Assembly (NCBI GenBank): GCA_965223905.1
Contig: CBDCXV010000009.1
Coordinates: 640,001 to 704,000 of the forward strand
Length of the DNA stretch: 64,000 nt
Source of the DNA: Candidatus Latescibacterota bacterium
GTDB taxonomy: Bacteria; Latescibacterota; UBA2968; UBA8231
Direction: 5' to 3'
This document shows positions 704 to 59,418 of this stretch, piece after piece. Each line of letters begins with the position of its first letter. The first letter of the stretch is position 1. The notes under the pieces are model-generated. The model had not been told where the DNA came from. It ran no database searches and saw nothing but the letters and a program-made list of their open reading frames with translations. A program made the position numbers and the translations under genes.

Positions 704-928
704 CTGAACGCAGGCCGTATCAGGCATGTCTCAACCGGATGGTAGACATGAATGCCTTGCCTCCGAAGCTCGACCTCTCACTTCTCCCTCCAGAAAGAGA
801 ACTCCATGATGAACACGATTGTTGCCGCATTTCTTGAAATCGCTCGGAAGGCAAGATCATCGATCTGCTATCCCAATTTTTTCGCTGCAGAGCATGCCAT
901 ACCATCCGCGACGGAAAGGCGCCGAAAA

Positions 929-3900
929 ATGCTAGTTGACAATAAAACAAATCGCGTGACACCGCTTCGCGTCCGTGGCGGATGCGCGGCCATCGTCTCC
1001 TTGATGGCCCTGCTCGGCACCGCTTCCTCCTGGGCTCAAACTGGCTTGAGTCCGTCATTCGGGGATGGGGACATTCCCGACCAAGTCTGGATCGCAGACT
1101 CGGCGATCGAGCCTGTGCCGCTGCCCGAGGCTTCGGGAGGGGACGGCGAGTTGGAATATACAGTGTCTCCAGAGCTTCCGGAGGGCTTGGTGTTTGAGGA
1201 AGTCACGAGGACTCTGTCGGGTACACCGACGACCCCCCAAGCCGAAGCCGAGTACGCATTGTTTGCTACCGACGCCGACGGCGATGCGGCCACCCTCTTC
1301 TTTTTTATTGAGGTAATCGAAGATTTAATGCCGAGCTTCGCCGAAGAAGTAGGGGATCAGATTTGGACGAAAAACCAGGAGATCGAGCCGTTAGTGCTGC
1401 CGATGGCGGAGGGCGGCAACCGCGAGTTGGAATATACGCTGGAGGGAGAGCTGCCCGAGGGGCTGGAATTCGATGCGGTCACCCGGACGATTTCTGGAAC
1501 CCCTGCGGTTTCCCAGGCCCCAACCGAGTACACTTGGACAGCCACCGACGCTGACGGAGACGCGGTTGAAATACGCTTCTTTGTTTTCGGGTCGGTTTCG
1601 GAGGATCTGGTGCCGAACTTCGCCGAAGGTATCGCAGATCAGATCTACGTCGAAGGTTCGCCGATTGAGCCTCTGTCGTTGCCAGTGGCCACGGGTGGCA
1701 CCGGCGAGTTGGAATATACGCTGGAGGGAGAGCTGCCCGAGGGGCTGGAATTCGATGCAGTCACCCGGACGATTTCCGGCATCCCTGCTGGCCTCCAGGC
1801 CCCAGCCGAGTACACATGGACAGCCACCGACGCCAACGGCGACGCGGTGGATCTGGTTTTCTCCCTGATGGTGGAAGAAGACGTAAATCCCGAGTTCACC
1901 GAAGAGGTGCAGAATCAGACCTGGATCCAGGACTCGGAGATTGCGGTGCTGGATTTGCCGGGTGCGGAGGGGGGTAACGGGCCCTATGTCTATTCGATAT
2001 CTCCTGAGCTTCCGACAGGGCTGACCTTTTGGGCGGGCGACCAGACGATTTTGGGCACGCCCACGGTGGCCCAGGAACGGACCATCTATGTGTACCGGGC
2101 GGTTGACGCCGACGGGGACGCGGTGGAACTGACTTTCTCACTGGCGGTGCTTGAGGACCTTTTGCCGAGCTTCGCCGAAGGTGTGGGGGGGCAGATCTGG
2201 ACGGAAGATTCCGCGGTGGAGACGCTGGTTCTGCCAGAAGGTTCGGGCGGAAACGGCGAGTTGACCTACGAGCTCTCTCCGGAATTGGCACGGGGATTGG
2301 CTTTCGATACGGAGACGCGGACGATTTCGGGAACGCCGGTGGTACCCAAGGAACGGACCCGCTACGTGTACCGGGCGGTTGACGTCGACGGCGACGCCGC
2401 GGAGTTGACCTTCTCGGTGATGGTGCTGAAGGACCTGATGCCGAGTTTCGGCGAAGCGGTGCAGAACCAGACCTGGATCCAGGACTCGGAGATTGCGGCG
2501 TTTGATTTACCGGGTGCGGAAGGGGGTAACGGGGCCATTTCCTATTCGATAACTCCCGAACTTCCGGCGGGCCTGGTCTTTCAGGCGGGCGACCAGACGG
2601 TTTTTGGAACGCCGACGGAGGCCCAGGAACGGACACTCTATGTGTACGGGGCGGTTGACGCCGACGGCGACGCTGTGGAACTGACCTTCTCGCTGGCGGT
2701 GTTGGAAGACCTGATGCCGAGCTTCGCCGAGAGCGTGGAGGCTCAGACCTGGACGGAAGATTCGCTGGTCGAGCCGCTGGAGTTGCCCGCTGCGGAAGGG
2801 GGAAACGGCCCCCTGTCTTACTCGCTGTCTCCGGAGCTTCCGGCTGAGATGGCATTCAATGCGAAGACGCGGACGATTTCAGGGAGGCCGACGGATCCCC
2901 ATGCCGAAACCGAGTACACATTGACGGCCACCGACGCCGACGGCGACCCGGTGGGTTTGGTCTATTCGGTGACGGTGATAGAGGACCTGATGCCGAGTTT
3001 CTCCGAAACGGTGATGAATCAGACCTGGACGCAGGATTCGGCGGTTGAGCTGGTGGTGCCGGAAGCTTCCGGGGGCAACGGCGCGTCGAGGTACACGGTG
3101 ACCCCCGAGTTGCCGACAGGGGTGACATTTGACGAGGGCACCCGGACGATATCGGGCACTCCGTCGACGCCGCAGGATCTGACGCGCTACGTGTTTCGGG
3201 CGATTGACGAGGACGGAGACGTGGCCGGATTTGCGATCTGGCTGAAGGTGCTGGAAGACCTGATGCCGGAATTCCCGGCGAGTGCGGAGGATCAGGTCTG
3301 GACGCAGGATTCGCCGGTTACGCTGGAGCTTCCGGCGGCTGAGGGGGGCAACGGCGCCCTGGTCTACACGCTGTCTCCGGAGCTTCCGGACGGGTTGATG
3401 TTCGAGGGGCCGCGTCAGCGGATCCGGGGCACGCCGACGACACCCCAGGCCGAGACCGAATACACGTTGACGGCGACGGATGAGGACGGCGACCCGGTGG
3501 ATCTGACTTTCTCGCTGACGGTAATAGAGGATCTGATGCCGAGCTTCGCCGAAGGGGTGAGGAATCAGACCTGGACGCAGGGTTCGGAGATCGAGCCGAT
3601 AGTGCTGCCGGAAGCTTCCGGAGGCAACGGCGCGTTGAGGTATACCCTGCTCCCTGAGTTGCCGGAAGGGGTGACGTTGGACGAGGGGTCGCGGACGATA
3701 TCGGGCACCCCTACGAGCCCGCAGGATCTGACGCGCTACGTGTATCGGGCGATCGACGAGGACGGAGACGTGGTGGGGTTCGCTTTTTCCCTGAAGGTGC
3801 TGGAAGACCTGATGCCGGGTTTTTCGGCGAGCGCGGAGGATCAGGTCTGGACGCAGGATTCGTCGATTGGGACGCTGGAGCTTCCGGTGGCGGAAGGGGG

Positions 3901-6900
3901 CAACGGCGCCTTGGTCTACACGCTGTCTCCAGAGCTTCCGGAGGGCCTGACGTTCGAGGGGCCGCGTCAGAGGATCCGGGGCACGCCGACGACACCCCAG
4001 GCCGAGACCGAATACACATTGACGGCGACGGATGAGGACGGCGACGCGGCGGACCTGACCTTCTCGCTGACGGTGATAGAGGACCTGATGGCGAGTTTCG
4101 CGGAAGGGGTGCGTAATCAGACCTGGACGCAGGATTCGGAGATCGAGCCGAAAGTGATGCCGGAGGCATCGGGGGGGAACGGGGCGTTGAGGTATACGCT
4201 GCTCCCTGAGTTGCCGGCGGGGGTTTCGCTGGACGAGGGATCGCGGACGATATCGGGCACCCCGACGGCGCCGCAGGATCTGACGCGCTACGTGTATCGG
4301 GCGATTGACGAGGACGGGGACGTGGTGGGGTTTGCGTTTTCTGTGAAAGTGATAGAGGACCTGATGCCGGGTTTTTCGGCGAGCGTGGAAGACCAGGTCT
4401 GGACGCAGGATTCGTCGATCGGGACGCTGGAGCTTCCGGTGGCGGAAGGAGGCAACGGCGCCCTGGCTTACACCCTGTCACCGGATCTGCCGGAGGGTCT
4501 GACGTTCGAGGGTTCGAGGCAGAGGATCCGGGGGACGCCGACGGTGCCGATGGATCAGACGACCTTCACTTACACTGCTACGGATGCGGACGGCGACGCG
4601 GCGGAGCTGACCTTCTCGCTGACGGTGCTGGAAGACTTGATGCCGAGTTTCGCGGAAGGGGTGCGGGATCAGACCTGGACGCAGGATTCGGAGATCGAGC
4701 CGATTGTGCTGCCGGAGGCATCGGGGGGCAATGGCGCTTTGAGGTACACATTGGAGCCTGAGTTGCCGGCAGGAGTGACCCTGGACGAGGGATCGCGGAC
4801 GATATCGGGCACCCCGACGACGCCGCAGGATCTGACGCGCTACGTGTATCGGGCGATTGACGAGGATGGGGACGTGGTGGGGTTTGCGTTTTCCGTGAAA
4901 GTGATAGAGGACCTGATGCCGGGTTTTTCGGCGAGCGTGGAGGACCGGGTCTGGACGCAGGATTCGTCGAGTGGGACGCTGGAGCTTCCGGTGGCGGAAG
5001 GAGGCAACGGCGCCTTGGCTTACACGCTGTCACCGGAGCTACCGGACGGTCTGATGTTCGAGGGTCCTCGTCAGCGGATCCGGGGGACGCCGACGGTGCC
5101 GATGGATCAGACGACCTTTACCTACACGGCTACGGATGAGGACGGCGACGCGGTGGAGCTGACCTTCGCGCTGACGGTGATCGAGGACCTGATGCCGGGC
5201 TTCGCCGAAGGGGTGAGGGATCAGACCTGGACGCAAAACTCGGAGATCGAGCCGAAAGTGCTTCCGGAGGCATCGGGCGGCAACGGGGAGTTGAGGTACA
5301 CCTTGACCCCCGAGTTGCCGGAAGGGGTGACGTTGGACGAGGGATCGCGGACGATATCTGGTACTCCGGCGAGCCCGCAGGATCTGACGCGCTACGTGTA
5401 TCGGGCGATTGACGAGGACGGAGACGTGGTGGGGTTTGCGTTTTCAGTGAAGGTGCTGGAAGACCTGATGCCGGGTTTTTCGGCGAGCGTGGAGGATCAG
5501 GTCTGGACGCAGGATTCGTCGATCGGGACGCTGGAGCTTCCGGTTGCGGAAGGGGGCAACGGCGTTCTGGTGTATACACTGTCTCCGGAGCTACCGGACG
5601 GTCTGATGTTCGAGGGTCCTCGTCAGCGGATCCGGGGGACGCCGACGGTGCCGATGGATCAGACGACCTTTACCTACACGGCTACGGATGAGGACGGCGA
5701 CGCGGTGGAGCTGACCTTCGCGCTGACGGTGATCGAGGACCTGATGCCGGGCTTCGCCGAAGGGGTGAGGGATCAGACCTGGACGCAGAACTCGGAGATC
5801 GAGCCGATAGTGCTGCCGCAGGCTTCGGGCGGCAACGGGGAGTTGAGGTACACGTTGACGCCTGAGTTGCCGGCAGGGGTATCGCTGGACGAGGGGTCGC
5901 GGACGATATCAGGTACCCCGACGACGCCGCACGAGCGGACCCGCTACGTGTATCGGGCGATTGACGAGGATGGCGACGTCGCCGGGGTTGCCTTCTCGCT
6001 GGCGGTTGCGGAGGACCTGACTCCGGAGTTCACCGAAAGCGTGGAGGACCGGAATTACATCACCGATGTGGCGATTGCCGCGTGGGTGCTGCCGAAGGCC
6101 ACAAGCGGAAACGGCGCCTTGGTGTACACGCTGACGCCTGATTTGCCGGTTGGGCTGTCGTTCGACCCGCCGTCGCGGAAGATAACGGGCACCCCGACCG
6201 TGGCCCAGGAGCGCACGGAATACACCTATACCGCCACTGATGCCGACGGGGACACAGGTTCGTTGACCTTCGGGCTGACCATAACCCTGGCGAAGCCGAC
6301 GGCGCTGAATCTACTGCCTTCTCTCGAGCTGCTGGCAGGCGGAAATGCGGTCAGTGTCGATGTAGACGGGCTGTTCAGCGGTCAGGAACTGGTCTACCAG
6401 TTCGAGTCGAGCGACACCGAGGTCGCCTCCGTGGAGTCCGACGGGGCCTCTGCCGAGGTGACACCGAACCGTGAAGGTTTTACCAGGGTCACGGTAACGG
6501 CGACCAATTCGAGCGGTTCGGCGGATATCAAGTTTTCCGTCACTGTAAGTACCGCCCCGGAAGAGCGCGCCGTGCTCAATGACGTCCTCGCCGGTCTGGC
6601 TCGGGCACGGCTGAGCAGTCTGACTGGGGTGATCGGCCGCCGCTTCGAGGCCGGAGCGGCGTCATCCATGAGCTCTTCCCAGGCCTCCAGGTACGAGGCT
6701 CGCCGCGGGGCTCAGTGGTTCGACAATCTGGACGCGGCCCTGGATGGCTCCGGCGATTTTGGCAGCTTTGGCGGTCCCGGGGATTCCCACCGGAAGCCGA
6801 CCTCCAAACTGTGGGGCCGAACCTTTGCGGTGGCGCTCAACAGCGGAGAGGGTGGAAACAGCGGCGAGTGGACCGGGGCCATGAGTGACCAGTCCATGTC

Positions 6901-8053
6901 CGAGCCGTCATCCAAGATGCGCTGGAGCCTGTGGGGTGCCGGCGATCAGCAGGCCTTCAGTGGCGGCGAGTCCAACTCGTACGAGGGCGATCTGCGCTCG
7001 GTGTACCTGGGCCTGGATGGCGAATTCGGAAAGAGCTGGCTGGGCGGCAGTCGCTGGCTGACCGGTGTCTCGGTGGCCAGCAGCAGCGGAGAGGCGGAGT
7101 ACGATTTCACCGATTCCGACATGAGTGGCAGCGGTATCTTCACGACGAGTCTGACGAGCGTCTATCCGTACATGCGAGGTGCGCTGGCTTCCGGTCTGGA
7201 GCTGTGGTCCATCGCCGGGGTAGGTTCGGGTGAAGTAACAAACGAACGCGCCCATCTGGGCGGCACGACGGACGAGGGAGACCTCACCATGGGGCTGCTG
7301 ATGTTGGGTATGCGCAAACCATTGACTGGCATGGAGACTCGACTGACCCTGTTGGGAGATGCTGCGCAGGAGTGGCTTTCCGCCAACGGCACCGGTTCCC
7401 TGTCCTATAATCCGGTGTCGTCGGTGCAGCGCGCCCGAATGGGCGTGGAGCTGGCGCGTCGTATGGCGGGCGGTCTGGAGCCGTTCGGCGAGCTGAGCGG
7501 CCGTTACGACGGCGGTGACGGGGACGCAGGATCCGGCGTCGAGGTGGCGGCCGGTTCGCGCTACCGCAGCGCCCGCCTCGACATTGAGGCGCGGGGCCGC
7601 ATGCTGGCCATGCACTCGGCTTCGGGCTACAAGGAAACCGGCTTCGGAGCGCGCATCCGGGTGCGGTCGCACGCGGATGGCACCGGGATGTCGATGTCGC
7701 TGTCGCCGCGCTGGGGCAGGGCCGAAGGAAGCGGCTCCTTGTGGAGGGATCAGGCCCTTCAACTGAGGAACGGGGCAGCTGGCGCTTCCAGGCTTCGAGC
7801 TCCGACGCTTGGTGGCGGTATCGGTTATGGCCTCGCTGCAGCGCGGGGTGTAATGACCCCGGCGCTGGAGATGGACCGCAACGAATATGGCCGTACGCGG
7901 CTGCGGCTGGCGCTGGGTTACACTCCAGCTCCGGCTTTGATGCGAGCCTTCGACATGCATGGTGCGATGCTGGACCTCGGCATCAGCCGGGCGGAAGGCC
8001 TCGGCTCCGATCCGGAGCACGAGATCCGCATGAGGGGCCGGCTGCGGTTATGA
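929..8053 (+). CDS. Giant surface adhesin: signal peptide + 19 putative Ig/cadherin-like (He_PIG-like) repeats + Ig-like domain + C-terminal autotransporter-type beta-barrel
   Basis: ORF 752..8053; likely start ATG 929 after GGAAAGG, giving a signal peptide ending ...ASSWA-Q; ~92-aa repeats 'LPxGLxF....RTISGTPT....YTxTATDxDGD'; C-terminal amphipathic strands beginning 'RWSLWGAGD...YEGDLRSVYLGLD'. Confidence 0.85.
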   Translation: MLVDNKTNRVTPLRVRGGCAAIVSLMALLGTASSWAQTGLSPSFGDGDIPDQVWIADSAIEPVPLPEASGGDGELEYTVSPELPEGLVFEEVTRTLSGTPTTPQAEAEYALFATDADGDAATLFFFIEVIEDLMPSFAEEVGDQIWTKNQEIEPLVLPMAEGGNRELEYTLEGELPEGLEFDAVTRTISGTPAVSQAPTEYTWTATDADGDAVEIRFFVFGSVSEDLVPNFAEGIADQIYVEGSPIEPLSLPVATGGTGELEYTLEGELPEGLEFDAVTRTISGIPAGLQAPAEYTWTATDANGDAVDLVFSLMVEEDVNPEFTEEVQNQTWIQDSEIAVLDLPGAEGGNGPYVYSISPELPTGLTFWAGDQTILGTPTVAQERTIYVYRAVDADGDAVELTFSLAVLEDLLPSFAEGVGGQIWTEDSAVETLVLPEGSGGNGELTYELSPELARGLAFDTETRTISGTPVVPKERTRYVYRAVDVDGDAAELTFSVMVLKDLMPSFGEAVQNQTWIQDSEIAAFDLPGAEGGNGAISYSITPELPAGLVFQAGDQTVFGTPTEAQERTLYVYGAVDADGDAVELTFSLAVLEDLMPSFAESVEAQTWTEDSLVEPLELPAAEGGNGPLSYSLSPELPAEMAFNAKTRTISGRPTDPHAETEYTLTATDADGDPVGLVYSVTVIEDLMPSFSETVMNQTWTQDSAVELVVPEASGGNGASRYTVTPELPTGVTFDEGTRTISGTPSTPQDLTRYVFRAIDEDGDVAGFAIWLKVLEDLMPEFPASAEDQVWTQDSPVTLELPAAEGGNGALVYTLSPELPDGLMFEGPRQRIRGTPTTPQAETEYTLTATDEDGDPVDLTFSLTVIEDLMPSFAEGVRNQTWTQGSEIEPIVLPEASGGNGALRYTLLPELPEGVTLDEGSRTISGTPTSPQDLTRYVYRAIDEDGDVVGFAFSLKVLEDLMPGFSASAEDQVWTQDSSIGTLELPVAEGGNGALVYTLSPELPEGLTFEGPRQRIRGTPTTPQAETEYTLTATDEDGDAADLTFSLTVIEDLMASFAEGVRNQTWTQDSEIEPKVMPEASGGNGALRYTLLPELPAGVSLDEGSRTISGTPTAPQDLTRYVYRAIDEDGDVVGFAFSVKVIEDLMPGFSASVEDQVWTQDSSIGTLELPVAEGGNGALAYTLSPDLPEGLTFEGSRQRIRGTPTVPMDQTTFTYTATDADGDAAELTFSLTVLEDLMPSFAEGVRDQTWTQDSEIEPIVLPEASGGNGALRYTLEPELPAGVTLDEGSRTISGTPTTPQDLTRYVYRAIDEDGDVVGFAFSVKVIEDLMPGFSASVEDRVWTQDSSSGTLELPVAEGGNGALAYTLSPELPDGLMFEGPRQRIRGTPTVPMDQTTFTYTATDEDGDAVELTFALTVIEDLMPGFAEGVRDQTWTQNSEIEPKVLPEASGGNGELRYTLTPELPEGVTLDEGSRTISGTPASPQDLTRYVYRAIDEDGDVVGFAFSVKVLEDLMPGFSASVEDQVWTQDSSIGTLELPVAEGGNGVLVYTLSPELPDGLMFEGPRQRIRGTPTVPMDQTTFTYTATDEDGDAVELTFALTVIEDLMPGFAEGVRDQTWTQNSEIEPIVLPQASGGNGELRYTLTPELPAGVSLDEGSRTISGTPTTPHERTRYVYRAIDEDGDVAGVAFSLAVAEDLTPEFTESVEDRNYITDVAIAAWVLPKATSGNGALVYTLTPDLPVGLSFDPPSRKITGTPTVAQERTEYTYTATDADGDTGSLTFGLTITLAKPTALNLLPSLELLAGGNAVSVDVDGLFSGQELVYQFESSDTEVASVESDGASAEVTPNREGFTRVTVTATNSSGSADIKFSVTVSTAPEERAVLNDVLAGLARARLSSLTGVIGRRFEAGAASSMSSSQASRYEARRGAQWFDNLDAALDGSGDFGSFGGPGDSHRKPTSKLWGRTFAVALNSGEGGNSGEWTGAMSDQSMSEPSSKMRWSLWGAGDQQAFSGGESNSYEGDLRSVYLGLDGEFGKSWLGGSRWLTGVSVASSSGEAEYDFTDSDMSGSGIFTTSLTSVYPYMRGALASGLELWSIAGVGSGEVTNERAHLGGTTDEGDLTMGLLMLGMRKPLTGMETRLTLLGDAAQEWLSANGTGSLSYNPVSSVQRARMGVELARRMAGGLEPFGELSGRYDGGDGDAGSGVEVAAGSRYRSARLDIEARGRMLAMHSASGYKETGFGARIRVRSHADGTGMSMSLSPRWGRAEGSGSLWRDQALQLRNGAAGASRLRAPTLGGGIGYGLAAARGVMTPALEMDRNEYGRTRLRLALGYTPAPALMRAFDMHGAMLDLGISRAEGLGSDPEHEIRMRGRLRL
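1046..6289 (+). repeat. Intragenic array of 19 ~276-bp units, with a higher-order A-B period of 552 bp over units ~8-18
   Basis: Like units recur near 3533, 4085, 4637, 5189 and 5741 (552-bp spacing); 5033-5235 is identical to 5585-5787. Confidence 0.9.
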
Positions 8054-8079
8054 GCTGACCGGGCCTTTCAGTCGAATCG

Positions 8080-8113
8080 AAACCCGCGCGGAAGTGATTC
8101 CGCGCGGGTTTTT
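8080..8113 (+). terminator. Rho-independent terminator after the adhesin gene
   Basis: aaacccgcgcggaa-gtga-ttccgcgcgggttttt: 14-bp perfect stem ending in a T-tract. Confidence 0.85.
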
Positions 8114-8311
8114 CAATCTGGTTCCCGATCCTCGGTGAACGCCTTCACTTGGCTCCACTCTTCCAGGAATGGGACCCATCGAGGACCCGTATGCAGCGGT
8201 GGGCCGGGTCTGAAATTTCCCCGGAGATACCTTGGTCGACATAACCTGAGGGCCAGGCAACATTGGGCCACCACCGGTTGCCAGTCACGCGTCCCAGCAA
8301 AGGAGGTTCCA

Positions 8312-8782
8312 TTGATCGATCGGGAGCACACCCTGTCCCGGCCGCGGGCAGCCGGAATTCTCGCCTGCGGCCTGGTTTTCCTCGCAGTCGGCGTCGATGC
8401 CCGCAGCAGTCGGGTTGCCCAGATTCCCAACGGTGGCGAAAACGGCTGCGCCAACTGCCACGTTAACTCGTCCGGCGGGGGAGCCCGCAATTCTTTCGGG
8501 GAGATGATCGATATTGGCTTCCTTACCGAGGCTGGTCCTTCGGGTTCGGTCATCTGGGGTCCCGAGCTCGCCGGGCTCGACGCCGACGAAGACGGCTTCA
8601 CCAACGGCGAAGAGCTCGGAGATCCGGAGGGGACCTGGATCTCCGGCGACGATCCCCCGGGAGACCCGGAAGCGGTAACCAATCCCGCGGATCCAGACAG
8701 CCACCCACCGGAACCGGAAGCGACTGCAGTCGCGGCGTCGACGTGGGGCCGGATCAAGGGCATCCTGCAACTGCGACGGTAA
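8312..8782 (+). CDS. Secreted temptin-like protein with CxxCH (putative c-type heme) motif, DxDxDG repeat and C-terminal TWGRIK tail
   Basis: TTG start after a strong AAGGAGG; signal peptide; 'GCANCHVNSSGGGARNSFG', 'DADEDGFTNGEELGDP..TW', tail 'TAVAASTWGRIK'. Confidence 0.75.
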   Translation: MIDREHTLSRPRAAGILACGLVFLAVGVDARSSRVAQIPNGGENGCANCHVNSSGGGARNSFGEMIDIGFLTEAGPSGSVIWGPELAGLDADEDGFTNGEELGDPEGTWISGDDPPGDPEAVTNPADPDSHPPEPEATAVAASTWGRIKGILQLRR

Positions 8783-19903: not shown

Positions 19904-20320
19904 ATGCTTGGAAGGAAAGAGAACGGCACCGCTAACGGAAGCGGACAACCCCTCAACACGATCATCGGCAACGGCACCCTGTTCGAGGGCACCATGAAGG
20001 TTGACAACAGCGTCCGCATCGACGGCATCTTCAAGGGTGAGCTATCCTGTTCCGGAGCCCTGACCATCAGCCAGTCGGGGGAAGCGTACGCCCAGATCGA
20101 AGGGGTGGACATCTACATAAACGGCATAGTCAGGGGTACCGTGCGCGCCGAAAAGGTCCGCCTCGACAGCCAGGCGCGCTTCATCGGCGATGTCCATACC
20201 AGCTCCCTGTCGGTCTCCGAAGGAGCCGTCTTCCACGGCAACAGCGTCATGGAGACGGCCGGCGAAGTCGAAGAGCCGGAAAACCTGGAGTCCGCAAAGC
20301 TGCTGCCGATGGAGGGGTAG
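19904..20320 (+). CDS. Bactofilin (polymer-forming cytoskeletal protein)
   Basis: 'TIIGNGTLFEGTM....VRIDG.FKG', 'INGIVRGTV.A', 'FIGDV....LSVSEGAVFHG' beta-helix repeats. Confidence 0.9.
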   Translation: MLGRKENGTANGSGQPLNTIIGNGTLFEGTMKVDNSVRIDGIFKGELSCSGALTISQSGEAYAQIEGVDIYINGIVRGTVRAEKVRLDSQARFIGDVHTSSLSVSEGAVFHGNSVMETAGEVEEPENLESAKLLPMEG

Positions 20321-20417
20321 TATCCCGGCGGCCGGCTGCCATCCCCAGAGCACGCCGGCCAGACGATCCGTCCGCAAGGGAGAATCCGCAGCTCCCGCGG
20401 TCGTTGATCGCCTCAAC

Positions 20418-21440
20418 CTACCTGCGCATCAGGTAGAACCTGAGGTCGGGATATAACCGGATCGCAGGAGCGGGCAGGTGGATCCAGTTGAGTTGGGATT
20501 TCAGCGGCTTCCACCAGGCAGCATCACCAGGCATAAATCGGGCATCGAAGTCGAAGGCGATCAGGACCTCCGGTCGCCCGTCGGGAAGATCTTCGTACTC
20601 CCGAAAAGGCCCCTTGCTTTTGACGTTGCTCCCGTGGAGACCGATGGCGCTGTATCCCAGCGCCAGTCCGAGAAAATCAGGCCAGATGCGAGCCCCCCGT
20701 TCCGGAAGAAGCTGCTCGAGGGCCACTGTCATCCAGAACGTCATGCCCTGGTAGTCGTCGATCAGGTGATCGGTGTGAGGCCGCTCCTCTCGCGAGCGCT
20801 GGACGCGCTCCCGATAGAGGGGGGACGGCCAGTAGCTGAATTTGAAGCCGAAGGCGCGGCTCGGTGGACAGGTGGCGTAAACCAGCGGCACCGCCGCTCC
20901 CAGGGTGTTGAAGAAGAAATCCGGAATGCTGAACCCCCAGTGCACGAAATAGGCGTCGCGCATTTCGATTTCGAACAGCGCCCCCCAGCTCGTGAGGGTC
21001 CCCAGGGAGGTTGCCGACATGGTGCCGAACCCCGCCCATGAATAAGCACTCGAGAACAGGCTCGAGAGAAACAGGCCGCCCATGAAGTGGCCGCCCTTGT
21101 CGAGGTTCAGGTAGGTATCTCCCGACCAGTCGTTGATCCAGCGGATCGAGTTGCGCTTTTCCCCCTGGTACCAGGCGCGGTCGAAATAGCGGAACCCGAG
21201 ATAATGGATGGCGGCCCCGGCACCGCACAGGGCGAGCAACCGTTCGAGGCGGACGCGACGGTTTTCCGCCGGTTCGTACTCCTGGCCCGCAATATGGGAC
21301 GCCTTCGCATCGCTGGTGTCAGCCTCGGTTGCAGCGGGGCAGGTGGCGGCGACGGCCAGGAACAGGGCCGGAGAACAACGCAAACAGGCCGCCAGCTTGT
21401 ATCGCAATCGTCGGAACCGCTTTACCTTACAGGTGTTCAA
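20418..21440 (-). CDS. DUF2279/YfiM-like membrane protein (start uncertain)
   Basis: 'DKGGHF', 'WGFS..D..FN.LG', 'FKFSY', 'DDY.G.TFW'. Confidence 0.7.
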   Translation of the reverse strand: MNTCKVKRFRRLRYKLAACLRCSPALFLAVAATCPAATEADTSDAKASHIAGQEYEPAENRRVRLERLLALCGAGAAIHYLGFRYFDRAWYQGEKRNSIRWINDWSGDTYLNLDKGGHFMGGLFLSSLFSSAYSWAGFGTMSATSLGTLTSWGALFEIEMRDAYFVHWGFSIPDFFFNTLGAAVPLVYATCPPSRAFGFKFSYWPSPLYRERVQRSREERPHTDHLIDDYQGMTFWMTVALEQLLPERGARIWPDFLGLALGYSAIGLHGSNVKSKGPFREYEDLPDGRPEVLIAFDFDARFMPGDAAWWKPLKSQLNWIHLPAPAIRLYPDLRFYLMRR

Positions 21441-21510
21441 GTTGTTGTAGTTTATGTATTAAGGGGCAACGGCAATCGAAAACGCCGCCGACAGACGGGC
21501 CGCAGGGTAG

Positions 21511-23298
21511 ATGGCTGGCAGCGAGGGCATCAGCTCCCCAGGTTCCCGGCAGCGCGACCGGGGGCCGGGGAGCGGCGCACCGGTTCCAAGGCGCCGGCGC
21601 CCCGGCAGCAGGAGCGGCGCACCGTCGCCGGTTGGAGCCCAAGAGGCCACGCCGGGCTCTCGAGCGCGCCGGTGGCTCTCGAAGATCGTCTCTTCATGGG
21701 GGCCGTCACCGACCTTCCGCATTTTCCTCTTCCTCGGCGGCATCCTCTCCATCATGGCGTTTTTACTCTACAATGAGTACGTCATCGACCAGCTGAGGCG
21801 GCAGGAGAGAAACAGGGTTGCCCTCTACGCCAACCTCTACGGTCTGGCCTCGTCCCACCATCTGCACGAGGATGTCTCGGAACAGATCTGGAACACCGTA
21901 ATCTTCAACCCAGAGATCGACTTCCCCATAATAGTCACAGACCACCGGGGAGAGGTCGTGCTTGTAAAAGGTGACGGCCTCCCCGCGGCGGGCGACACGT
22001 CCGCAGCGGCCGCGGCGCGCCTGCGGCGGATCGTCGAGCAGATGGACGCACGGTATAAACCGGTGCGTTTTTTCGAGTCTCCCCTGGCTCGCGGCTTGGT
22101 CTACTTCGACGGCAGCAATCTCGTTCTCACCGATCTGTCAGGCCGGATAGTCACCTGGGCGCGCAAGGATCTTCCCGCCGGCGGTGATTCCACAGAGGTA
22201 GCTGCTGCGGAGGCGGCCGCGATGCTGCGGGTCCTTCGTGCTACGGTGACTCCGGATTCGCTGGCTGTCCCCGCAGACGGACGCAGCACTCTGTACCTGG
22301 ACGAGAACCGCTTCCTCGTCATCGATGCTTCCGGAAAGGCAGCGGTCTGGGGCGGCAGCCGCCTGCCCGCCGATCGCTCTTCCGCTGCCCTGGAGGAGGT
22401 ACAGCGCGCCGCCGCGGCATGGCCAGCCGGGTCCCCGCCGGTTTCGTTCCGCATACGCACGGAAAAGTTCATCCACTTCGGTCAGTCCGACATGATCGGG
22501 CAGATATCTTTCGCCCCCCTGGTCTCACTGGCAGTCCTGGCGATCTTCAGCCTTGTCGGCTACATCGGTTTCCGCAACATCCGCCGCAGCGAACAGCGCT
22601 CGATATGGGTCGGCATGGCGAAGGAGACGGCGCATCAGCTCGGCACCCCCCTGTCGTCGCTGGCGGGGTGGCTGGAGTTGATGGCGGGAGGCCGTGGGGA
22701 GATGCGGGAGCAAAGGGATGGCATCGTTCAGGAGATGCAGAAGGACATGCGGCGGCTGAACCAGATCGCATCCCGTTTCAGCCAGATCGGCTCCGTGCCG
22801 GAGCTGCGCCCTTCCGACCTCGGCTCGGTGCTCTCGGAAACCATCGGTTATTTCCGCGGACGCGGCCCCCAGTTCGGGCGCCATGTCTTCGAAGTCGACC
22901 TCGGCGATCTGCCGCCGGTTCCACTGAACGCGGAGCTGATGGGCTGGGCATTCGAGAATCTGTTCAAGAATGCCATGGATGCCATCGGGGGGAACGACGG
23001 AACCATCGCCGTGCGCGCCCGCCTGCGCGACCCGGACACCGTGAGCATCACTGTCCGCGACAACGGGCGCGGCATCGATGCCGACAGCATCGCCCGTGTT
23101 TTCGAACCGGGATTCAGCACCCGCAAGCGGGGTTGGGGACTGGGGTTGGCATTCGTGAAACGAATCGTGGAGGAGTACCACGGAGGCCGCATCCAGATCG
23201 CCCACAGCGCCGCGGGCTGGGGGACGACCTTCGAGATAGAGCTGCCGGTCCGGGGTGAGGGCACTTGCGCCGACGAACCGCGGTCAAGGGGAAAATGA
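21511..23298 (+). CDS. Membrane sensor histidine kinase with a triplicated extracytoplasmic module
   Basis: Two TM helices; H-box 'GMAKETAHQLGTPLSSL'; N-box 'ENLFKNAMDA'; 'DNGRGI', 'FEPGFSTRKRGWGLGL'. Confidence 0.93.
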   Translation: MAGSEGISSPGSRQRDRGPGSGAPVPRRRRPGSRSGAPSPVGAQEATPGSRARRWLSKIVSSWGPSPTFRIFLFLGGILSIMAFLLYNEYVIDQLRRQERNRVALYANLYGLASSHHLHEDVSEQIWNTVIFNPEIDFPIIVTDHRGEVVLVKGDGLPAAGDTSAAAAARLRRIVEQMDARYKPVRFFESPLARGLVYFDGSNLVLTDLSGRIVTWARKDLPAGGDSTEVAAAEAAAMLRVLRATVTPDSLAVPADGRSTLYLDENRFLVIDASGKAAVWGGSRLPADRSSAALEEVQRAAAAWPAGSPPVSFRIRTEKFIHFGQSDMIGQISFAPLVSLAVLAIFSLVGYIGFRNIRRSEQRSIWVGMAKETAHQLGTPLSSLAGWLELMAGGRGEMREQRDGIVQEMQKDMRRLNQIASRFSQIGSVPELRPSDLGSVLSETIGYFRGRGPQFGRHVFEVDLGDLPPVPLNAELMGWAFENLFKNAMDAIGGNDGTIAVRARLRDPDTVSITVRDNGRGIDADSIARVFEPGFSTRKRGWGLGLAFVKRIVEEYHGGRIQIAHSAAGWGTTFEIELPVRGEGTCADEPRSRGK

Positions 23299-24860
23299 TG
23301 GAGTCGAATCGGCGCAAGGTGTTGTGGGCTGACGACGAGATCGACATGCTCCGCTCACACTGCCTGTTCCTCAACGAGCGCGGCTACGAGGTAACCCCGG
23401 TCAGCAACGGCGAGGACGCGATAGCACTGATGCGCCGCGAGCATTTCGACATCGTGCTGCTCGACGAAATGATGCCCGGGCTCGACGGCCTCGCTACCGT
23501 CGAGGAAGTGAAAAACCAGGATCCCAACGTCCCTGTGATCATGATAACCAAAAACGAGGAAGAGCACCTGATGGACGAGGCCATCGGCCGCCGCCTCGAC
23601 GACTACCTGACCAAGCCGGTCAACCCGAGCCAGATCTTCATGGCCTGCCGGAAAATCCTCGACTCCAGGCAGATTCGCCAGAGCCAGGCCGGTCCGGCGT
23701 ACGTGTCGCAGGCCAACCAGATCCGCGAATGGCTTTCGGGAGCCCAGACGTGGCACACTTGGATCGACATCCACCGTCTGCTGTGCGAGTGGGACATCGA
23801 GATCTCGCGGATCGGCGACCGCGGACTGATGCGGATGATTGAGGACCAGCGACGCGAGTGCAACCAGGAGTTCGCCCGTTTTGTCGAGCGGGAATACCCG
23901 ACCTGGGTGAGGAGCGAGGAGGACTCGCCGCCGCTGTCGGTCGATGTCGTATCCGAGAACGTCGCGCCGCATCTGCAAGCCGGGAAACAGGTCTTCTTCA
24001 TCGTCATCGATTGCCTGCGGCTCGATCACTGGATGACGGTGGAACCGCTGATTTCGGAGTTTTTCAACGTGCGGCGGTCGCACTACTACTCGATCCTCCC
24101 CACGGCGACGCCCTACGCCCGCAACGCCCTGTTCAGCGGCCTCTTTCCAAGCGAAATAGCGTCGAAATACGAAGAGCTGTGGTCGGCGGGAAACGACGAC
24201 GAACAGAGCCTGAACCGCCACGAGCACCGCTTTCTTGACGACCTGATCGCTGCCGCGGGGATCGAACTCGCCGGGCCCACGCGCTACACCAAGATCCTCG
24301 AGGCGGGAGAGGGGCGGGATACGGCGCGCAGGGTGGATTCGATGGCGAATTCCCCGCTGGTAGCGCTGGTCTACAACTTTCTCGACATGCTGGTCCACGG
24401 CCGTTCCAACTCCGAGCTCCTGCGGGAGATAGCCCCTGAGGAGAGTGCCTTCCGCTCCCTGGTGCAGTCGTGGTTCGAGCACTCCTCGCTGTTCGAGCTG
24501 CTGAAGAAGGTTGCGCGTATGGATGCCGTCGTCGTCCTGACGACGGATCACGGAGCCGTGCGCGGCAGGCGTGCGACCATGGTCCACGCCGACCGTCAGA
24601 CATCCCCGAGCCTGCGCTACAAAAAGGGGCGGAACCTGCGCTGCGATTCGAAGGACGCCCTGCTGATTGCGGAACCGCTCGCGTACGGACTCCCCAACGC
24701 CGGGTTGGGGGGCAACTACCTGATCGCAAAGGAAGATTTCTACTTCGTGTATCCCAGGAAATTCAATGAGTATCAGCGCCACTACAAAGACAGCTTCCAG
24801 CACGGCGGCATCTCCTTGGAGGAGATGATCCTGCCAGTGGTCACCCTGGAGCCGCGATGA
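23295..24860 (+). CDS. porX: PorX-like response regulator (REC + PglZ/alkaline-phosphatase-superfamily domain)
   Basis: REC 'LWADDE...LLDEMMPG.DG..ITKNEEE...YLTKPVNP'; PglZ 'IDCLRLD', 'SILPTATPYARNALFSG', 'NFLDMLVH', 'TTDHG', 'FQHGGISLEEM'; upstream of tsaE. Confidence 0.85.
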   Translation: MMESNRRKVLWADDEIDMLRSHCLFLNERGYEVTPVSNGEDAIALMRREHFDIVLLDEMMPGLDGLATVEEVKNQDPNVPVIMITKNEEEHLMDEAIGRRLDDYLTKPVNPSQIFMACRKILDSRQIRQSQAGPAYVSQANQIREWLSGAQTWHTWIDIHRLLCEWDIEISRIGDRGLMRMIEDQRRECNQEFARFVEREYPTWVRSEEDSPPLSVDVVSENVAPHLQAGKQVFFIVIDCLRLDHWMTVEPLISEFFNVRRSHYYSILPTATPYARNALFSGLFPSEIASKYEELWSAGNDDEQSLNRHEHRFLDDLIAAAGIELAGPTRYTKILEAGEGRDTARRVDSMANSPLVALVYNFLDMLVHGRSNSELLREIAPEESAFRSLVQSWFEHSSLFELLKKVARMDAVVVLTTDHGAVRGRRATMVHADRQTSPSLRYKKGRNLRCDSKDALLIAEPLAYGLPNAGLGGNYLIAKEDFYFVYPRKFNEYQRHYKDSFQHGGISLEEMILPVVTLEPR

Positions 24861-25360
24861 CGAGGGAAGCCTTCGTGGAGGTACCTTCCTCCTGGCCGGA
24901 TCCGGATTTCACCGGTGGTGCGGCAACGACCCATTCGGCCGCGGAGACGCGGGCTCTGGGGGCTCGTTTCGCCGCTCTGCTGGGTCCCGGAGAGCTGGTC
25001 GCCCTCACAGGAGAGCTGGGGGCCGGCAAGACCTGCTTCATACAGGGCATCTGCGCCGGACTCGGGGTCTCAGAGACCGTTAACAGCCCGACATTCGTCC
25101 TGATAAACCAGTACTCCGGACTTCGCAAGGACATTGCGATTTCCATCTATCACTTCGATTTTTACCGCCTCTCGGGTGCCGGCGAGCTCGACAGCTTCGG
25201 GGCGGAAGAATTCTTCGACGGAGACGGCATATGCCTGGTAGAGTGGGCGGAGCGGGCTGCGGAGCGGCTGCCGCCGCGGCGCTGGCAGGTCGAAATGGAG
25301 TACGTCGGGGCCGGGTCGCGGTCGTTGCGCTTCTGCAAGCTCGGCATCGGCACAAGCTGA
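24857..25360 (+). CDS. tsaE: tRNA threonylcarbamoyladenosine biosynthesis ATPase
   Basis: 'GELGAGKT', 'NSPTF', 'YHFDFYRL', 'LVEWA'. Confidence 0.93.
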   Translation: MTREAFVEVPSSWPDPDFTGGAATTHSAAETRALGARFAALLGPGELVALTGELGAGKTCFIQGICAGLGVSETVNSPTFVLINQYSGLRKDIAISIYHFDFYRLSGAGELDSFGAEEFFDGDGICLVEWAERAAERLPPRRWQVEMEYVGAGSRSLRFCKLGIGTS

Positions 25361-25407
25361 CTACGGAGAGAGCCAGATTGCCGCACCTGCCAGGAAATCC
25401 GACCAGC

Positions 25408-26172
25408 ATGATCTTCACCGTGTTGTTGCTCTGCGCGAGCGCCTGGGCGCAAGAGGCGGAGCCGGTACGGCTGGTCGACAGCCCGACCGCCGGACTGACC
25501 TCCAAGGGGCGCTTCGGCGTGGACCTGCGGCTGTTCTCGAACGGCGGTGTAATCGGCGAGGTGAACGCCGGGATCCTGAAGCGCATTGCGATCGGCCTTT
25601 CCTTCGGCGGCACGGAGATCATCGGCGACGACGCGGTTTCCTGGTATCCCCGAGTAGAGGCCGCGGCTCGCTATCGCGTGATCGAGGAGAGTTCGGCAAT
25701 GCCGGGGGTAGCCATCGGATACGAAACCCAGGGGTACGGGGCCTACGAAGAGAACCGCTACCAGATAAAATCGAAGGGACTGTTCGCGGCGTTCAGCAAG
25801 AACTACTCCTCCGCCGTGGGCCAGTTCGGCCTTCATGCCGGAATCAACCTGACCCGCGAAGACGAGGACGACGGGGATCTGTCCGGGTGGCTGGGCGTCG
25901 ACAAGAGCATCGGCAGGCAGCTGTCGATCGTCGGCGAGTACGACCTGGCCATCAACGACAACGGAGATGACTCGCTGGGATCGGGAAAGGGCTACCTCAA
26001 CGTCGGCGCATACTGGTCTGCGGTACCGAACATCGGTATCGGCATTCTGCTGAAAAACGTTCTCAGAAATCGGGACGCGCCGGAATCCGGAGTCCCGGTA
26101 ATTTATCGGCAACTATCGGCGGATCCCGATATCAGCAGAGAGATATCCATCCGCTATACCGAGGAGTTCTGA
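25408..26172 (+). CDS. Secreted outer-membrane beta-barrel protein (YjbH-like)
   Basis: Signal peptide ending ...ASAWA-Q; 'LVDSPTAG'; alternating amphipathic strands; C-terminal Phe. Confidence 0.65.
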   Translation: MIFTVLLLCASAWAQEAEPVRLVDSPTAGLTSKGRFGVDLRLFSNGGVIGEVNAGILKRIAIGLSFGGTEIIGDDAVSWYPRVEAAARYRVIEESSAMPGVAIGYETQGYGAYEENRYQIKSKGLFAAFSKNYSSAVGQFGLHAGINLTREDEDDGDLSGWLGVDKSIGRQLSIVGEYDLAINDNGDDSLGSGKGYLNVGAYWSAVPNIGIGILLKNVLRNRDAPESGVPVIYRQLSADPDISREISIRYTEEF

Positions 26173-26174
26173 AA

Positions 26175-27479
26175 ATGCTGACATCCCGGGCGATTATGGC
26201 ATTGACTTCGTTGGTGCTGGCGATTCCGGCGTTCCCCCAGGAGGAGCGCGCTGTGGACCACTTCGCCGGGGTAGGGGTGCGGGCGATGGGGATGGGGGGA
26301 GCCTACGCAGGAGTAGCGGATGATTTCACCGCAACTTTTTGGAATCCGGCCGGACTGGTGCAGGTGCAGGGCCGGGAAGTCCATGTCGCCTTCCTGCGCA
26401 ACGGGGTCACCAACGACTCTGAGCTGAAAGGCACCGGTTCGAGTTCCGAGCTCAGCAACACGCGCTTCGGTTCGCTCGGGTTCGTCTATCCCTACCCGGT
26501 GTACAGGGGCAATCTCGTGTTCGCCGCCGGCTTCAATCGCGTCAAGGATTTCGACTGGAGCCTGCGGGAGCAGGCTTTCATTAACAGTCTGTCGCATGAC
26601 AACCACTTCAGCCATGAAGGGGAGCTCGCCATGACCACGGTGGCGGCCGCGGTTGACGTCTCCCCTTCGATCTCCCTCGGGGTCGCCGCCAGCCTGATTT
26701 CCGGGGAGGACGAGGCGGTCAACGAATACGAAGCGCTGGATGACGAGGACCACTTTCTCGAAAGGCGGTTCACGGCGAGAGAGGTCTTTGTCGACGACTA
26801 CCAGACGACCTACCAGGTCACCCTGGGCGCCATGGTCCGGTCGCCGGTGGTGCGGTTCGGGGCGACGGTCGGGACCGGACCGACGCACAAAGTCCGCTAC
26901 ACCTTCAAGGCACCTCCTAACGAAGGCTGGAATTCGATCGAATACGACGACGGCTCGGTGGTGGAAACCCCGAACGATCAGATAAGGGATTCCTACGAGA
27001 TCTCGTTGCCGCTCGAGTTCGGGGTGGGCGCGTCGCTGCGTCCCGTTCCCGGGCTGCTGCTCGCCGCCGGTGTCCACGTGGCCGAGTGGACGCAGACCGA
27101 GTATCGCGGCAAGGACGAAAGCGAAGTACGGGCAAACACCTCCTTCGAGTCTCAGTACCGGGACGGGACCCGCTACCACTTCGGGGTTGAGTGGCAGGTG
27201 CCGGTGGTGGCGCTCGACCTGCGCGCGGGGTACTACACCGACCCGCTTCCCTTCATCGGTCCGCGCGATCCGAATCTGGAGGAGGACGACGAGACGAATC
27301 CCCGCATAACAGCCAAGCGGGACCGCGCCTTCCTGACCTTTGGCGCCGGCCTGGAAATGGAGGAGGCCGTTGAAGTGAATCTCGCCTGGAACCACGGAAC
27401 CTTCGAACGGTTGGAGCGTCCCTTGCAGGAGGAGGTCACTGTCGACCGGGTCTTCATAGGGTTGTCATATCACTTCTGA
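26175..27479 (+). CDS. OmpP1/FadL/PorV-superfamily outer-membrane protein
   Basis: Signal peptide; 'GVRAMGMGGAYAGVADDFTATFWNPAGL' signature; ends 'GLSYHF'. Confidence 0.85.
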   Translation: MLTSRAIMALTSLVLAIPAFPQEERAVDHFAGVGVRAMGMGGAYAGVADDFTATFWNPAGLVQVQGREVHVAFLRNGVTNDSELKGTGSSSELSNTRFGSLGFVYPYPVYRGNLVFAAGFNRVKDFDWSLREQAFINSLSHDNHFSHEGELAMTTVAAAVDVSPSISLGVAASLISGEDEAVNEYEALDDEDHFLERRFTAREVFVDDYQTTYQVTLGAMVRSPVVRFGATVGTGPTHKVRYTFKAPPNEGWNSIEYDDGSVVETPNDQIRDSYEISLPLEFGVGASLRPVPGLLLAAGVHVAEWTQTEYRGKDESEVRANTSFESQYRDGTRYHFGVEWQVPVVALDLRAGYYTDPLPFIGPRDPNLEEDDETNPRITAKRDRAFLTFGAGLEMEEAVEVNLAWNHGTFERLERPLQEEVTVDRVFIGLSYHF

Positions 27480-27606
27480 CCTCGGCGCGAGGCTTGGATC
27501 GAATCGATACCGGGTGTATATTGAAGAGAAGGCTGCATGTGAAGGGTCGGGCCGCGGGTGCCAAAAAAAGACACAACAAGCTGAAAAACAGGAGGTTGTG
27601 TTCATC

Positions 27607-28323
27607 ATGAACAAAGACAAAGGAATCGTGGTCGTCGCTCTGGTCGTCGTCGCCTTGTCGTTGGGCGGATGTTACACGGTGCTGAAATCGCCGTACGCCG
27701 CCGATGATGCCAGGGAGGATGCCCGCTACGCCCGCTGGGAAGAGGAGAACCTCAGGGACAAATACGCACCTACCATCGGGCGTTTCGACGACGGCGACCG
27801 ATGGGATAGCCCGTACGACTATGGCCGCCAGGGTTTCCCGGTCTTCGGGTATCACTCCCAGTACGGCGCCTACGGTATGGGGGCCTATGGCAGCCCCTAC
27901 GGTGGGTATGGCGGCTACGGGGTGCCTTACGGCTACGGCAACGATCCGTACTACAACAACGGCTACGGTCCCTACGGCTACGGCTATGATCCATATTACG
28001 GGGACCCCAACGGGGTCTACGTACCTCCAGGATACGCGCTGGTGACCACGTCGGAGCTCGAGCAGGAGCAGCTGAGGGATATCCAGGTCCTCACCAATAC
28101 CACCCAGGATCACCTGCCGACGATCGATGAAGAGGCCGTGCGGCTGCAGAGGATCGAAACCGACAAGGAGAACTGGCAGCGTCGCAACACTCCCCGCGCT
28201 ACCAGAACCGCACCGACGACCAAGCGGGAGACAACCTCAACATCCTCCACCCCGGCCGCCAAGCAGGCGACGGAAAAATCTTCGGGCGAGTCGAATGCCG
28301 GGAGCAGGCGGGGCCGCCGTTAG
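27607..28323 (+). CDS. Lipoprotein with a Tyr/Gly-rich low-complexity domain and basic Ser/Thr-rich tail
   Basis: AGGAGG RBS; lipobox 'LSLGG-C'; 'YGAYGMGAYGSPYGGYGGYGVPYGYG...'. Confidence 0.75.
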   Translation: MNKDKGIVVVALVVVALSLGGCYTVLKSPYAADDAREDARYARWEEENLRDKYAPTIGRFDDGDRWDSPYDYGRQGFPVFGYHSQYGAYGMGAYGSPYGGYGGYGVPYGYGNDPYYNNGYGPYGYGYDPYYGDPNGVYVPPGYALVTTSELEQEQLRDIQVLTNTTQDHLPTIDEEAVRLQRIETDKENWQRRNTPRATRTAPTTKRETTSTSSTPAAKQATEKSSGESNAGSRRGRR

Positions 28324-59297: not shown

Positions 59298-59402
59298 CCT
59301 CAGGCGGATCCGGGAATCCTGCTGGGCGCAGGCCGCCGTACCGATGGCACGGCGGTGGAAAGCGCCACCTGGGGCCGCATCAAGGCCAGCCTCTCTGAAT
59401 AA
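59298..59402 (+). pseudogene. Orphan 3'-end remnant encoding a TWGRIK C-terminal tail
   Basis: Open frame PQADPGILLGAGRRTDGTAVESATWGRIKASLSE* with an in-frame TGA just upstream (59295) and no ATG. Confidence 0.6.
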
Positions 59403-59418
59403 GCCAGCCTGGCAACCC

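Follow-up and report, generated by a model that had tools for sequence, protein, structure and literature searches.

A short C-terminal tag, borne by many unrelated exported proteins of a Candidatus Latescibacterota bacterium, is probably a detached terminal element of the fold of two paralogous lipoproteins, A and B, and docks its bearers on B, at or beside the type IX attachment module. The window, the 64,000-nucleotide stretch of DNA analysed here (assembly GCA_965223905.1, contig CBDCXV010000009.1, positions 640,001 to 704,000 of the forward strand), holds one tagged gene and the remnant of another. It belongs to a genome, G000, of 7.9 Mb that is 93.6% complete.

A tagged temptin-domain protein and a gene remnant

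The tagged gene, located at 8312..8782 (+), encodes an exported temptin-domain protein of 156 amino acids. The first-pass annotation, which was made from the letters of the window, had described its product as secreted. A TTG start lies behind an AAGGAGG motif, and residues 1-30 (8312..8401 (+)) read as a signal-peptide-like start ending in V-D-A, with a helix at residues 15-24 in the structural model. The Temptin C-terminal domain (8399..8686 (+)) has a conserved CxxCH motif and a DxDxDG loop, and matches Temptin_C (PF24784) over residues 30-125 with 48.9 bits. A Pro/Glu linker (8687..8722 (+), residues 126-137) leads to the tag and lies outside the predicted interface described below, in which the contacts begin at residue 138. 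The first half of the tag, T-A-V-x-x-S (8723..8740 (+)), resembles the PorU cleavage consensus. The second half (8741..8782 (+)) reads [ST]-W-G-x-I-K-x-x-L up to the stop codon and forms a helix at residues 144-155 in the model. It is this half that is kept across all lineages and that is common to the last helix of lipoprotein A. No solved fold was matched by the alignment-based model of the protein, its single-sequence fold has a pLDDT of 39, and the Atlas holds no entry for it.

Just upstream of the tagged gene, 752-8053 (+) encodes a repeat protein of 2300-2400 residues with weak T1SS-143-like matches; an inverted repeat at ~8077-8114, 3' of this gene, looks like a terminator. A second temptin-tag gene is found on a 21-kb contig (G000:C7:4809-5306 (-)), and 129 of its 156 residues are identical to those of the window protein. 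This gene is either a paralogue or the result of strain mixture (the contamination estimate of the genome is 5.1%).

The motif had been reported twice in the window, and both peptides were confirmed at their positions: 8723-8782 reads TAVAASTWGRIKGILQLRR and 59349-59402 reads TAVESATWGRIKASLSE, each followed by the stop. The second copy had been taken for the end of an unrelated passenger, which it is not. Its frame spans 34 codons from stop to stop, and the sole start codon falls inside the motif. The region 59313..59406 (+), which holds this copy, is an orphan 3' remnant of a tag-bearing gene with no passenger, and over 94 bases it shares 84% DNA identity with another short tail frame on contig C1. 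The GILL...TAVE...WGRIKASL end that it shares suggests that it derives from the 3' part of a gene of the large CBM9-like family of tail proteins.

The tag is a terminal feature of many exported proteins

The regular expression proposed in the first-pass annotation gave 45 matches in a six-frame scan of the genome, 41 of which lie at most 15 residues from a stop. The core [ST]WG.[IVL]K gave 101 matches, 89 of them within the same distance, far above the 5, 11 and 14 matches of control motifs (reversed and scrambled cores) in the same genome. A profile of the tag found 123 matches at 21 bits; 118 of these are no further than 20 residues from the stop, against a background of 8.4% for Trp windows in long frames. 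Removal of three matches that lie more than 25 residues from the stop, and of one without the Lys, leaves 119 tail frames, while three more core-regex tails on contig C2 score below 21 bits and are outside this set. The 119 frames fall into 40 BLAST clusters, which bears out the idea of a short C-terminal tag on many unrelated proteins; 61 frames make up a single CBM9-like family. WD40, Kelch, LVIVD, BNR, PD40, lamin-tail, FGE-sulfatase and temptin proteins are among the other tagged passengers (Pfam scan of 18 representatives and the two window copies). Frames of fewer than 150 codons number 24 of the 119, the second copy of the window among them.

Signal peptides, called by a rule of our own, are enriched as had been expected: they were found in 69 of 95 long tail frames, in 121 of 600 other genes and in 96 of 145 proteins with a type IX secretion system (T9SS) CTD. 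Many of the 25 tail frames that miss a signal peptide look like frameshift fragments. Only one of the 95 long tail frames encodes a lipoprotein, and two have a hydrophobic 19-mer after residue 40. Tail proteins are small, with a frame median of 309 and a maximum of 557 residues, compared to a median of 736 for CTD proteins. Their genes are not enriched within 3 kb of type A CTD genes (6/95 versus 64/652). Within 3 kb of B-like CTD cassettes the counts are 14/95 versus 8/652; this enrichment is real, but it may stem from the one expanded CBM9-like family and was not used for naming a receptor.

In 45 frames of the genome the last two residues are V-Y or A-Y. They form a second class of CTD-like ends, similar to type B signals, and CBM9-like tail genes often adjoin them. 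One gene, G000:C2:632022-634232 (+), encodes a CBM9-like domain and a decayed internal copy of the tag, followed by WD40-like repeats and a type A CTD. It looks like a tagged gene that was lengthened by fusion.

Form and variants of the tag

The tag is 16-19 residues long and helical in the model, with the Lys and polar residues in the middle of the helix. On passengers, the helix follows the consensus [ST]-W-G-x-I-K-x-x-F/Y. As the first-pass annotation had stated, it fits none of the catalogued signals. NCBIfam searches at E up to 10, run with the remnant and 10 tail proteins, gave no match on the tag, whereas a CTD homologue does match; a Pfam search with 20 proteins likewise left the tag unmatched and gave no dockerin match either. 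The tag is a single helix, in which neither a D-x-N/D-x-D-G calcium loop nor a duplicated repeat was found. A literature search that covered few subscription journals retrieved no paper with TWGRIK, and none of the titles and abstracts listed dealt with a tag of this kind.

In GTDB genomes, a DNA pattern without stop requirement matched at least 107 stretches in at least 109 matches, two of which are duplicated by overlapping loci. Among the 109 matches listed, 106 reach a stop 2-11 residues past the Lys and three run off the locus. The 80 titles listed name Latescibacterota, Handelsmanbacteria, 'Gemmatimonadetes', Eisenbacteria and one Planctomycetota bin. Variant tags keep the helix and differ in the front part: x-A-V-E-P in Eisenbacteria-type genomes, a longer spacer in family f8 (the families of the phylum are numbered f1 to f14 here, with G000 in f1), and no T-A-V-like motif in several tags of f10 and of the Eisenbacteria type. 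A long-spacer form, V-E-P-x-G-K-L-x-T-T-W, which we take to be that of Poribacteria, has 123 metagenome matches, 119 of them with a stop at most 7 residues on; before the V, 25 of the 123 have Pro and 11 have Asp.

The tag swaps with known surface-sorting signals

The tag forms the end of 81 among the best 120 of 163 homologues of the window protein; a T9SS CTD takes its place in 24, and 15 have neither. One of these 15 passes the MYXO-CTERM model, and PF00404 was found on one temptin homologue. In the tail-negative families f2-f4, the temptin homologue ends in what reads as a dockerin-like repeat in all seven genomes searched. Within G000, a tailed LVIVD protein and a CTD-bearing one are 66% identical over 383 residues and diverge at T-A-V. 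For CBM9 proteins, five genomes drawn from f2, f3, f8 and f10 allowed no clean comparison of orthologues. In the temptin homologues P0104 and P0110, the slot of the tag is filled by a tail that is shorter still, S-[SV]-V-x-x-W-x-x-Y-stop, which no NCBIfam model matches and which is possibly another undescribed tag from a different lineage.

Lipoproteins A and B as candidate receptor family

The lead to a receptor came from f10, where one 'tail' belonged to a lipoprotein adjoining an M50 peptidase gene. In G000, the genes for lipoprotein A (contig C1 534939-535706 (-)) and lipoprotein B (contig C1 534238-534939 (-)) lie in tandem outside the window. Their operon also encodes a PorZ-like beta-propeller with a FlgD-type tail, two PorV/PorQ-family barrels and an M50-like peptidase, and this linkage of A/B to PorZ-like and PorV/PorQ genes has been kept in different families. 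A and B are paralogous to each other (hhalign 99.2%). Neither has a Pfam match at E up to 1, their NCBIfam match covers the signal peptide only, and by sequence the family has no solved relative. The nearest named Atlas clusters are Cds6_C, SnoaL_3 and DUF4440 at 0.79-0.82 (TM 0.60/0.78), which we treat as a lead toward an NTF2-like fold.

A-type proteins end in a last strand, W-x-[IVLM]-x-x-W-x-D, a spacer of 8-9 residues and a helix, [ST]-W-G-E-L-R-A-x-F (66 of 73); by a looser pattern, the helix is present in 122 of the best 150 clusters. The wider A family comprises 1417 clusters at E 0.001 and reaches Ignavibacteria. Two tandem-domain proteins have a helix of their own after each domain, and one of these helices reads like a passenger tag. 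A profile-profile comparison of the tail with the end of A gave a probability of 18.5% and an E of 0.0013, a likeness that is weak on its own. The first pass had raised the possibility that the motif belongs to the structure of a single domain family, and this is half borne out: it is the last helix of a putatively NTF2-like lipoprotein, yet on the passengers it stands detached.

In 19 of 20 genomes read, a set that stems from the more distant matches and is not random, the chain of B finishes with the last strand and has no helix. In f1, including G000, most B proteins keep a tail (78/120 by regular expression; its W and K at least 90%). There, as in many paralogues outside the phylum, the tail is borne on a long variable linker. 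In genomes outside the phylum, as many as five paralogues stand in tandem, the majority of them with a linker-borne tag, and the named relatives of B are labelled Latescibacterota or Gemmatimonadota. We propose that the groove of B is free where the helix is lacking, or only loosely filled where the helix sits on a linker. A second B domain of G000 is part of a fusion: in the protein of G000:C1:770612-771988 (-) (locus L166), a signal peptide, a CarboxypepD_reg domain, a FlgD/CTD-like domain, a B-type domain and the tag are fused; P0259 has the same three Pfam domains. This fusion protein is a possible carrier.

Modelled complex of B with the tag

Residues 38-206 of B, with its own tail cut off, were modelled together with residues 125-156 of the window protein. 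The complex scored 0.84 (0.84, 0.85 and 0.81 in the single runs), and the best of three controls scored 0.04. The runs agree in at least 93% of contacts, and the partner has a pLDDT of at least 65. Among solved pairs 116 of 157 reached the mark for such models, and among mismatched pairs 2 of 215, a rough calibration since our own alignments were used, and one that close cousins of the true partner pass too.

The predicted interface is confined to tag residues 138-150 and 152-153, and is the motif itself. In the model, W145 packs on V161, I163, V175, Q177 and M179 of B, G146 packs on F82 and E84, and tag residues 141-143 run along the B strand 173-175. The Trp pocket is conserved in the 19 helix-less B proteins, with V/I at 161 and 175 in 19/19 and Q177 in 18/19. 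The passing model shows that the tag fits the A/B fold rather than that B binds it in the cell, because A-type sequences may have taught the program how this helix packs in cis.

Gene profile across the phylum

The tail, A/B and PorU share one profile, being present in 11 families of the phylum and not found in three. Across 120 genomes, the tail HMM found 44/44 in f1 and full sets in f5-f7, f9 and f11-f14, as opposed to 0/29 in f2, 0/17 in f3 and 0/2 in f4. This HMM is TAVE-biased and gave 0/4 in f8 and a weak 4/11 in f10, both of which carry variant tags by other reading (4/4 and 6/11 genomes, respectively); in f2, three matches to the tag pattern were found, none of them terminal. Using B as a single query, we detected it in 43/44 genomes of f1, 10/11 of f10 and all of f5-f7, f9 and f11-f13, with no match in the 48 genomes of f2-f4 or in f8 and f14. 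The A profile matched in 4/4 genomes of f8, 1/1 of f14 and 9/9 from outside the phylum, and in 0/14 of f2-f4. Canonical PorU is present in 43/44 genomes of f1, 27/27 of f5-f14 and 0/48 of f2-f4.

Families f2-f4 belong to one class and may reflect a single joint loss of PorU, A/B and the tail, so that the profile cannot rank PorU and A/B as partners. In f10, A/B and PorU are present, yet there are only 1-2 tails per genome (clear in 6/11). One genome, G088 (86% complete), has tails and gave no A/B match with either the B query or the A profile. A tail search in 41 genomes around G125 found 6/41 at 1e-6, a threshold that was too strict.

Two further candidates failed to discriminate between the groups. 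SprA occurs in 119/121 genomes regardless of the tail, and Peptidase_C25 in 118/121; only the canonical PorU model separates tailed from tail-negative genomes. We also sought a tail-specific PorV paralogue, and found 6-26 PorV matches per genome in both groups. G000 itself has 123 TIGR04183 matches, SprA, a canonical PorU (616.9 bits, cut-off 420) adjoining PorV, and 14 PorV-family matches.

The machinery that had been suggested from within the window fared less well. The FadL/BamG-like barrel at 26253-27479, which is below the cut-offs for BamG (64 of 250) and PorV (45 of 90), occurs in 10/15 tail-negative genomes and, with this query, not in the tail-rich G125. Relatives of the peptidase-bearing Omp85 protein at 29131-32319 are present in 14/15 tail-negative genomes. 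The PorX-like regulator is a real PorX (667 bits, cut-off 300), but nothing ties it to the tail. The broader suggestion of a dedicated secretion or anchoring system is upheld insofar as the tail is tied to type IX envelope machinery, though the machinery in the window is not tail-specific.

Several loci around this machinery are worth recording. The stretch 19904-28323 (+) of the window encodes a histidine-kinase-like protein, PorX, a TsaE-like protein (by eye), an unannotated exported protein, the FadL/BamG-like barrel and a lipoprotein. At G000:C2:227875-239304 (+) (locus L170), a conserved operon contains, in this order, porU, porV, an M6-like peptidase gene with a CTD and a gene for a peptidase/propeller/Omp85-type protein; it was seen in f1, f6, f8 and f10. 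Families f2-f4 (L203-L213) keep SprA and many PorV paralogues, while canonical PorU and A/B were not found. They have only a long (~1900 aa) C25 protein, and their temptin passenger ends in the dockerin-like repeat, an apparent switch of the surface-display system within one class. Peptidase_C25 matches number 21-36 per genome in G123, G125 and G166, and 1-5 in the phylum of G000.

A docking model and its alternatives

We propose that the tag is a loose copy of the C-terminal helix and short strand that complete an NTF2-like lipoprotein fold. A would carry this helix close behind its last strand, and the groove of B would be left free or loosely filled. Signal peptides indicate that the passengers cross the inner membrane by Sec. 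The tag of a passenger would then fill the groove of B non-covalently, as modelled, and B would hold the tagged protein at the type IX attachment module, or hand it over to this module, a connection suggested by the operon and the shared profile. The proposal builds on the computed C-terminal position, export signals, signal swap, helix likeness to A, shared gene profile and passing model. In the cell, binding could take place on either side of the outer membrane, and PorU may cut before the tag; docking on B and cleavage by PorU are not mutually exclusive. Since most B proteins of f1 keep a tail of their own, B could itself be a client or be self-filled. With one or two B genes for about 95 long clients, a shuttle fits better than a fixed anchor.

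In a variant that we regard as unlikely, donor-helix exchange joins members of the A/B family into a scaffold or a short filament at the surface, and tagged proteins cap its end. Here, the empty groove of a lipid-anchored subunit would take the linker-borne tail of the next B, and so on. The tandem paralogue arrays, the proteins with one helix per domain and the up to 36 C25 matches fit such an arrangement.

The tag could instead be a miniature type IX signal, to which we assign a smallish chance. PorU would cut at T/AV, the passenger would be linked to LPS, a PorV/PorQ barrel would read the helix, and A and B would be clients or bystanders. Of the 109 distinct core matches in G000, 70 begin with T/S-[AGS]-V/I, a front that fits X/(GSA)(VLI), the published rule for PorU cleavage sites (PMC4560394). 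T[AGS][VI] also occurs in 23/85 CTD linkers compared to 5/85 control windows, the tail was not found in the 48 PorU-less genomes, and tag and CTD replace each other on the same passengers. Short CTDs of 43-55 residues exist in Prevotella intermedia (PMC11969387). However, known CTDs are folded beta structures of ~43-100 residues (PMC11969387, PMC11285876), whereas the tag is a helix of 16-19 residues. Moreover, 36 of the 123 long-spacer tags have Pro or Asp before the V, several tags of f10 and of the Eisenbacteria type do without the motif, and the strand pairing in the B model explains the front of the tag.

It is distinctly unlikely, in our estimate, that the A/B module works in the periplasm apart from secretion, with the tag tethering enzymes and binding proteins to an envelope lipoprotein or sending them to a chaperone or protease, and with gene neighbourhood as the sole tie to type IX secretion. 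This would draw on the same binding evidence as docking by the type IX module. Tail proteins are indeed small and not enriched near type A CTD genes, SprA is present whether genomes are tailed or not, and GldM and GldN were not found in G000, although their models had no positive control and gave no match in the control genomes either. Against this, orthologous passengers elsewhere bear surface signals (CTD, MYXO-CTERM and dockerin-like ends), and the operon with the PorZ-like and PorV/PorQ genes recurs from family to family. A receptor-free amphipathic helix in direct contact with membrane lipid is highly improbable: the helical model, the conserved Trp and Lys and a net charge of ~+1.6 over the last 11 residues would suit it, but the mean hydrophobic moment is 0.35 compared to 0.33 for shuffles of the same residues, a specific site is indicated by the near-invariant W and K and by the tightly kept spacing from the stop, and the model with a protein partner passes and is matched by the gene profile. 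That the tails are functionless debris of a mobile or duplicated DNA end in one genome is barely credible and already largely refuted. The short frames and the expanded family noted above (24/119 and 61) are what debris would leave, but several phyla preserve the motif as protein sequence, on unrelated passengers and with spacers that differ, and the tag is found in 44/44 relatives of family f1.

Relation to known systems and implications

Docking on B would share several features with type IX secretion. T9SS CTDs (TIGR04183/PF18962) are, like the tag, C-terminal signals on Sec-exported proteins, in the same slot of the same passengers; the host of the tag has SprA, PorU and PorV-family barrels, and the A/B genes adjoin PorZ-like and PorV/PorQ genes. 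Unlike the tag, a CTD is a beta-sheet domain of at least 43 residues, and no CTD model matches the 16-19-residue helix. In addition, the predicted partner of the tag is a lipoprotein and not a barrel, and its cleavage motif is not strict.

In the cohesin-dockerin system, a C-terminal plug on many unrelated exported proteins is held non-covalently by a socket protein. The likeness extends to the slot of the tag, which dockerin-like repeats fill in the tail-negative families. In contrast to a dockerin, the tag is one helix, with neither calcium-binding loop nor duplication, and in contrast to cohesin, its candidate socket is a putatively NTF2-like lipoprotein whose plug would be a piece of its own fold. 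Chaperone-usher pili and the type V pili of Bacteroidota offer another parallel: one subunit contributes a terminal element that completes, in trans, the fold of a paralogue, and the type V pilins, which are lipoproteins, have their genes in arrays of paralogues. The tag differs from these donor strands in that the donor would be a helix with a short strand, the fold NTF2-like, and the element grafted on dozens of unrelated proteins. Tripartite signals (LPXTG, PEP-CTERM, GlyGly-CTERM and MYXO-CTERM) are, like the tag, short, borne by many passengers and matched by a gene profile, and MYXO-CTERM fills the slot of the tag on a temptin homologue. Unlike them, the tag has no transmembrane helix or basic cluster, and no cognate membrane protease was found for it.

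Taken together, the modelled docking suggests a new principle, in which the tag is a detached piece of the receptor's own fold, coarsely similar to plug-and-socket display. Proteins would thereby be retained at the cell envelope, next to type IX secretion, in a manner not described before. If this is true, several uncultured phyla common in marine, sponge, sediment and soil samples would address up to at least 100 exported proteins per genome by a tag of fewer than 20 residues that is outside all catalogues and is read by an unnamed lipoprotein family. Next to type IX secretion and its folded-CTD rule there would be a further cargo route, and two conserved but unannotated genes of the PorZ/PorQ operon, a pair whose range extends at least to Ignavibacteria, would be accounted for. 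The tag would then serve as a marker for annotating tagged proteins, and the pair of A/B and tag would be usable as a compact, non-covalent protein tag.
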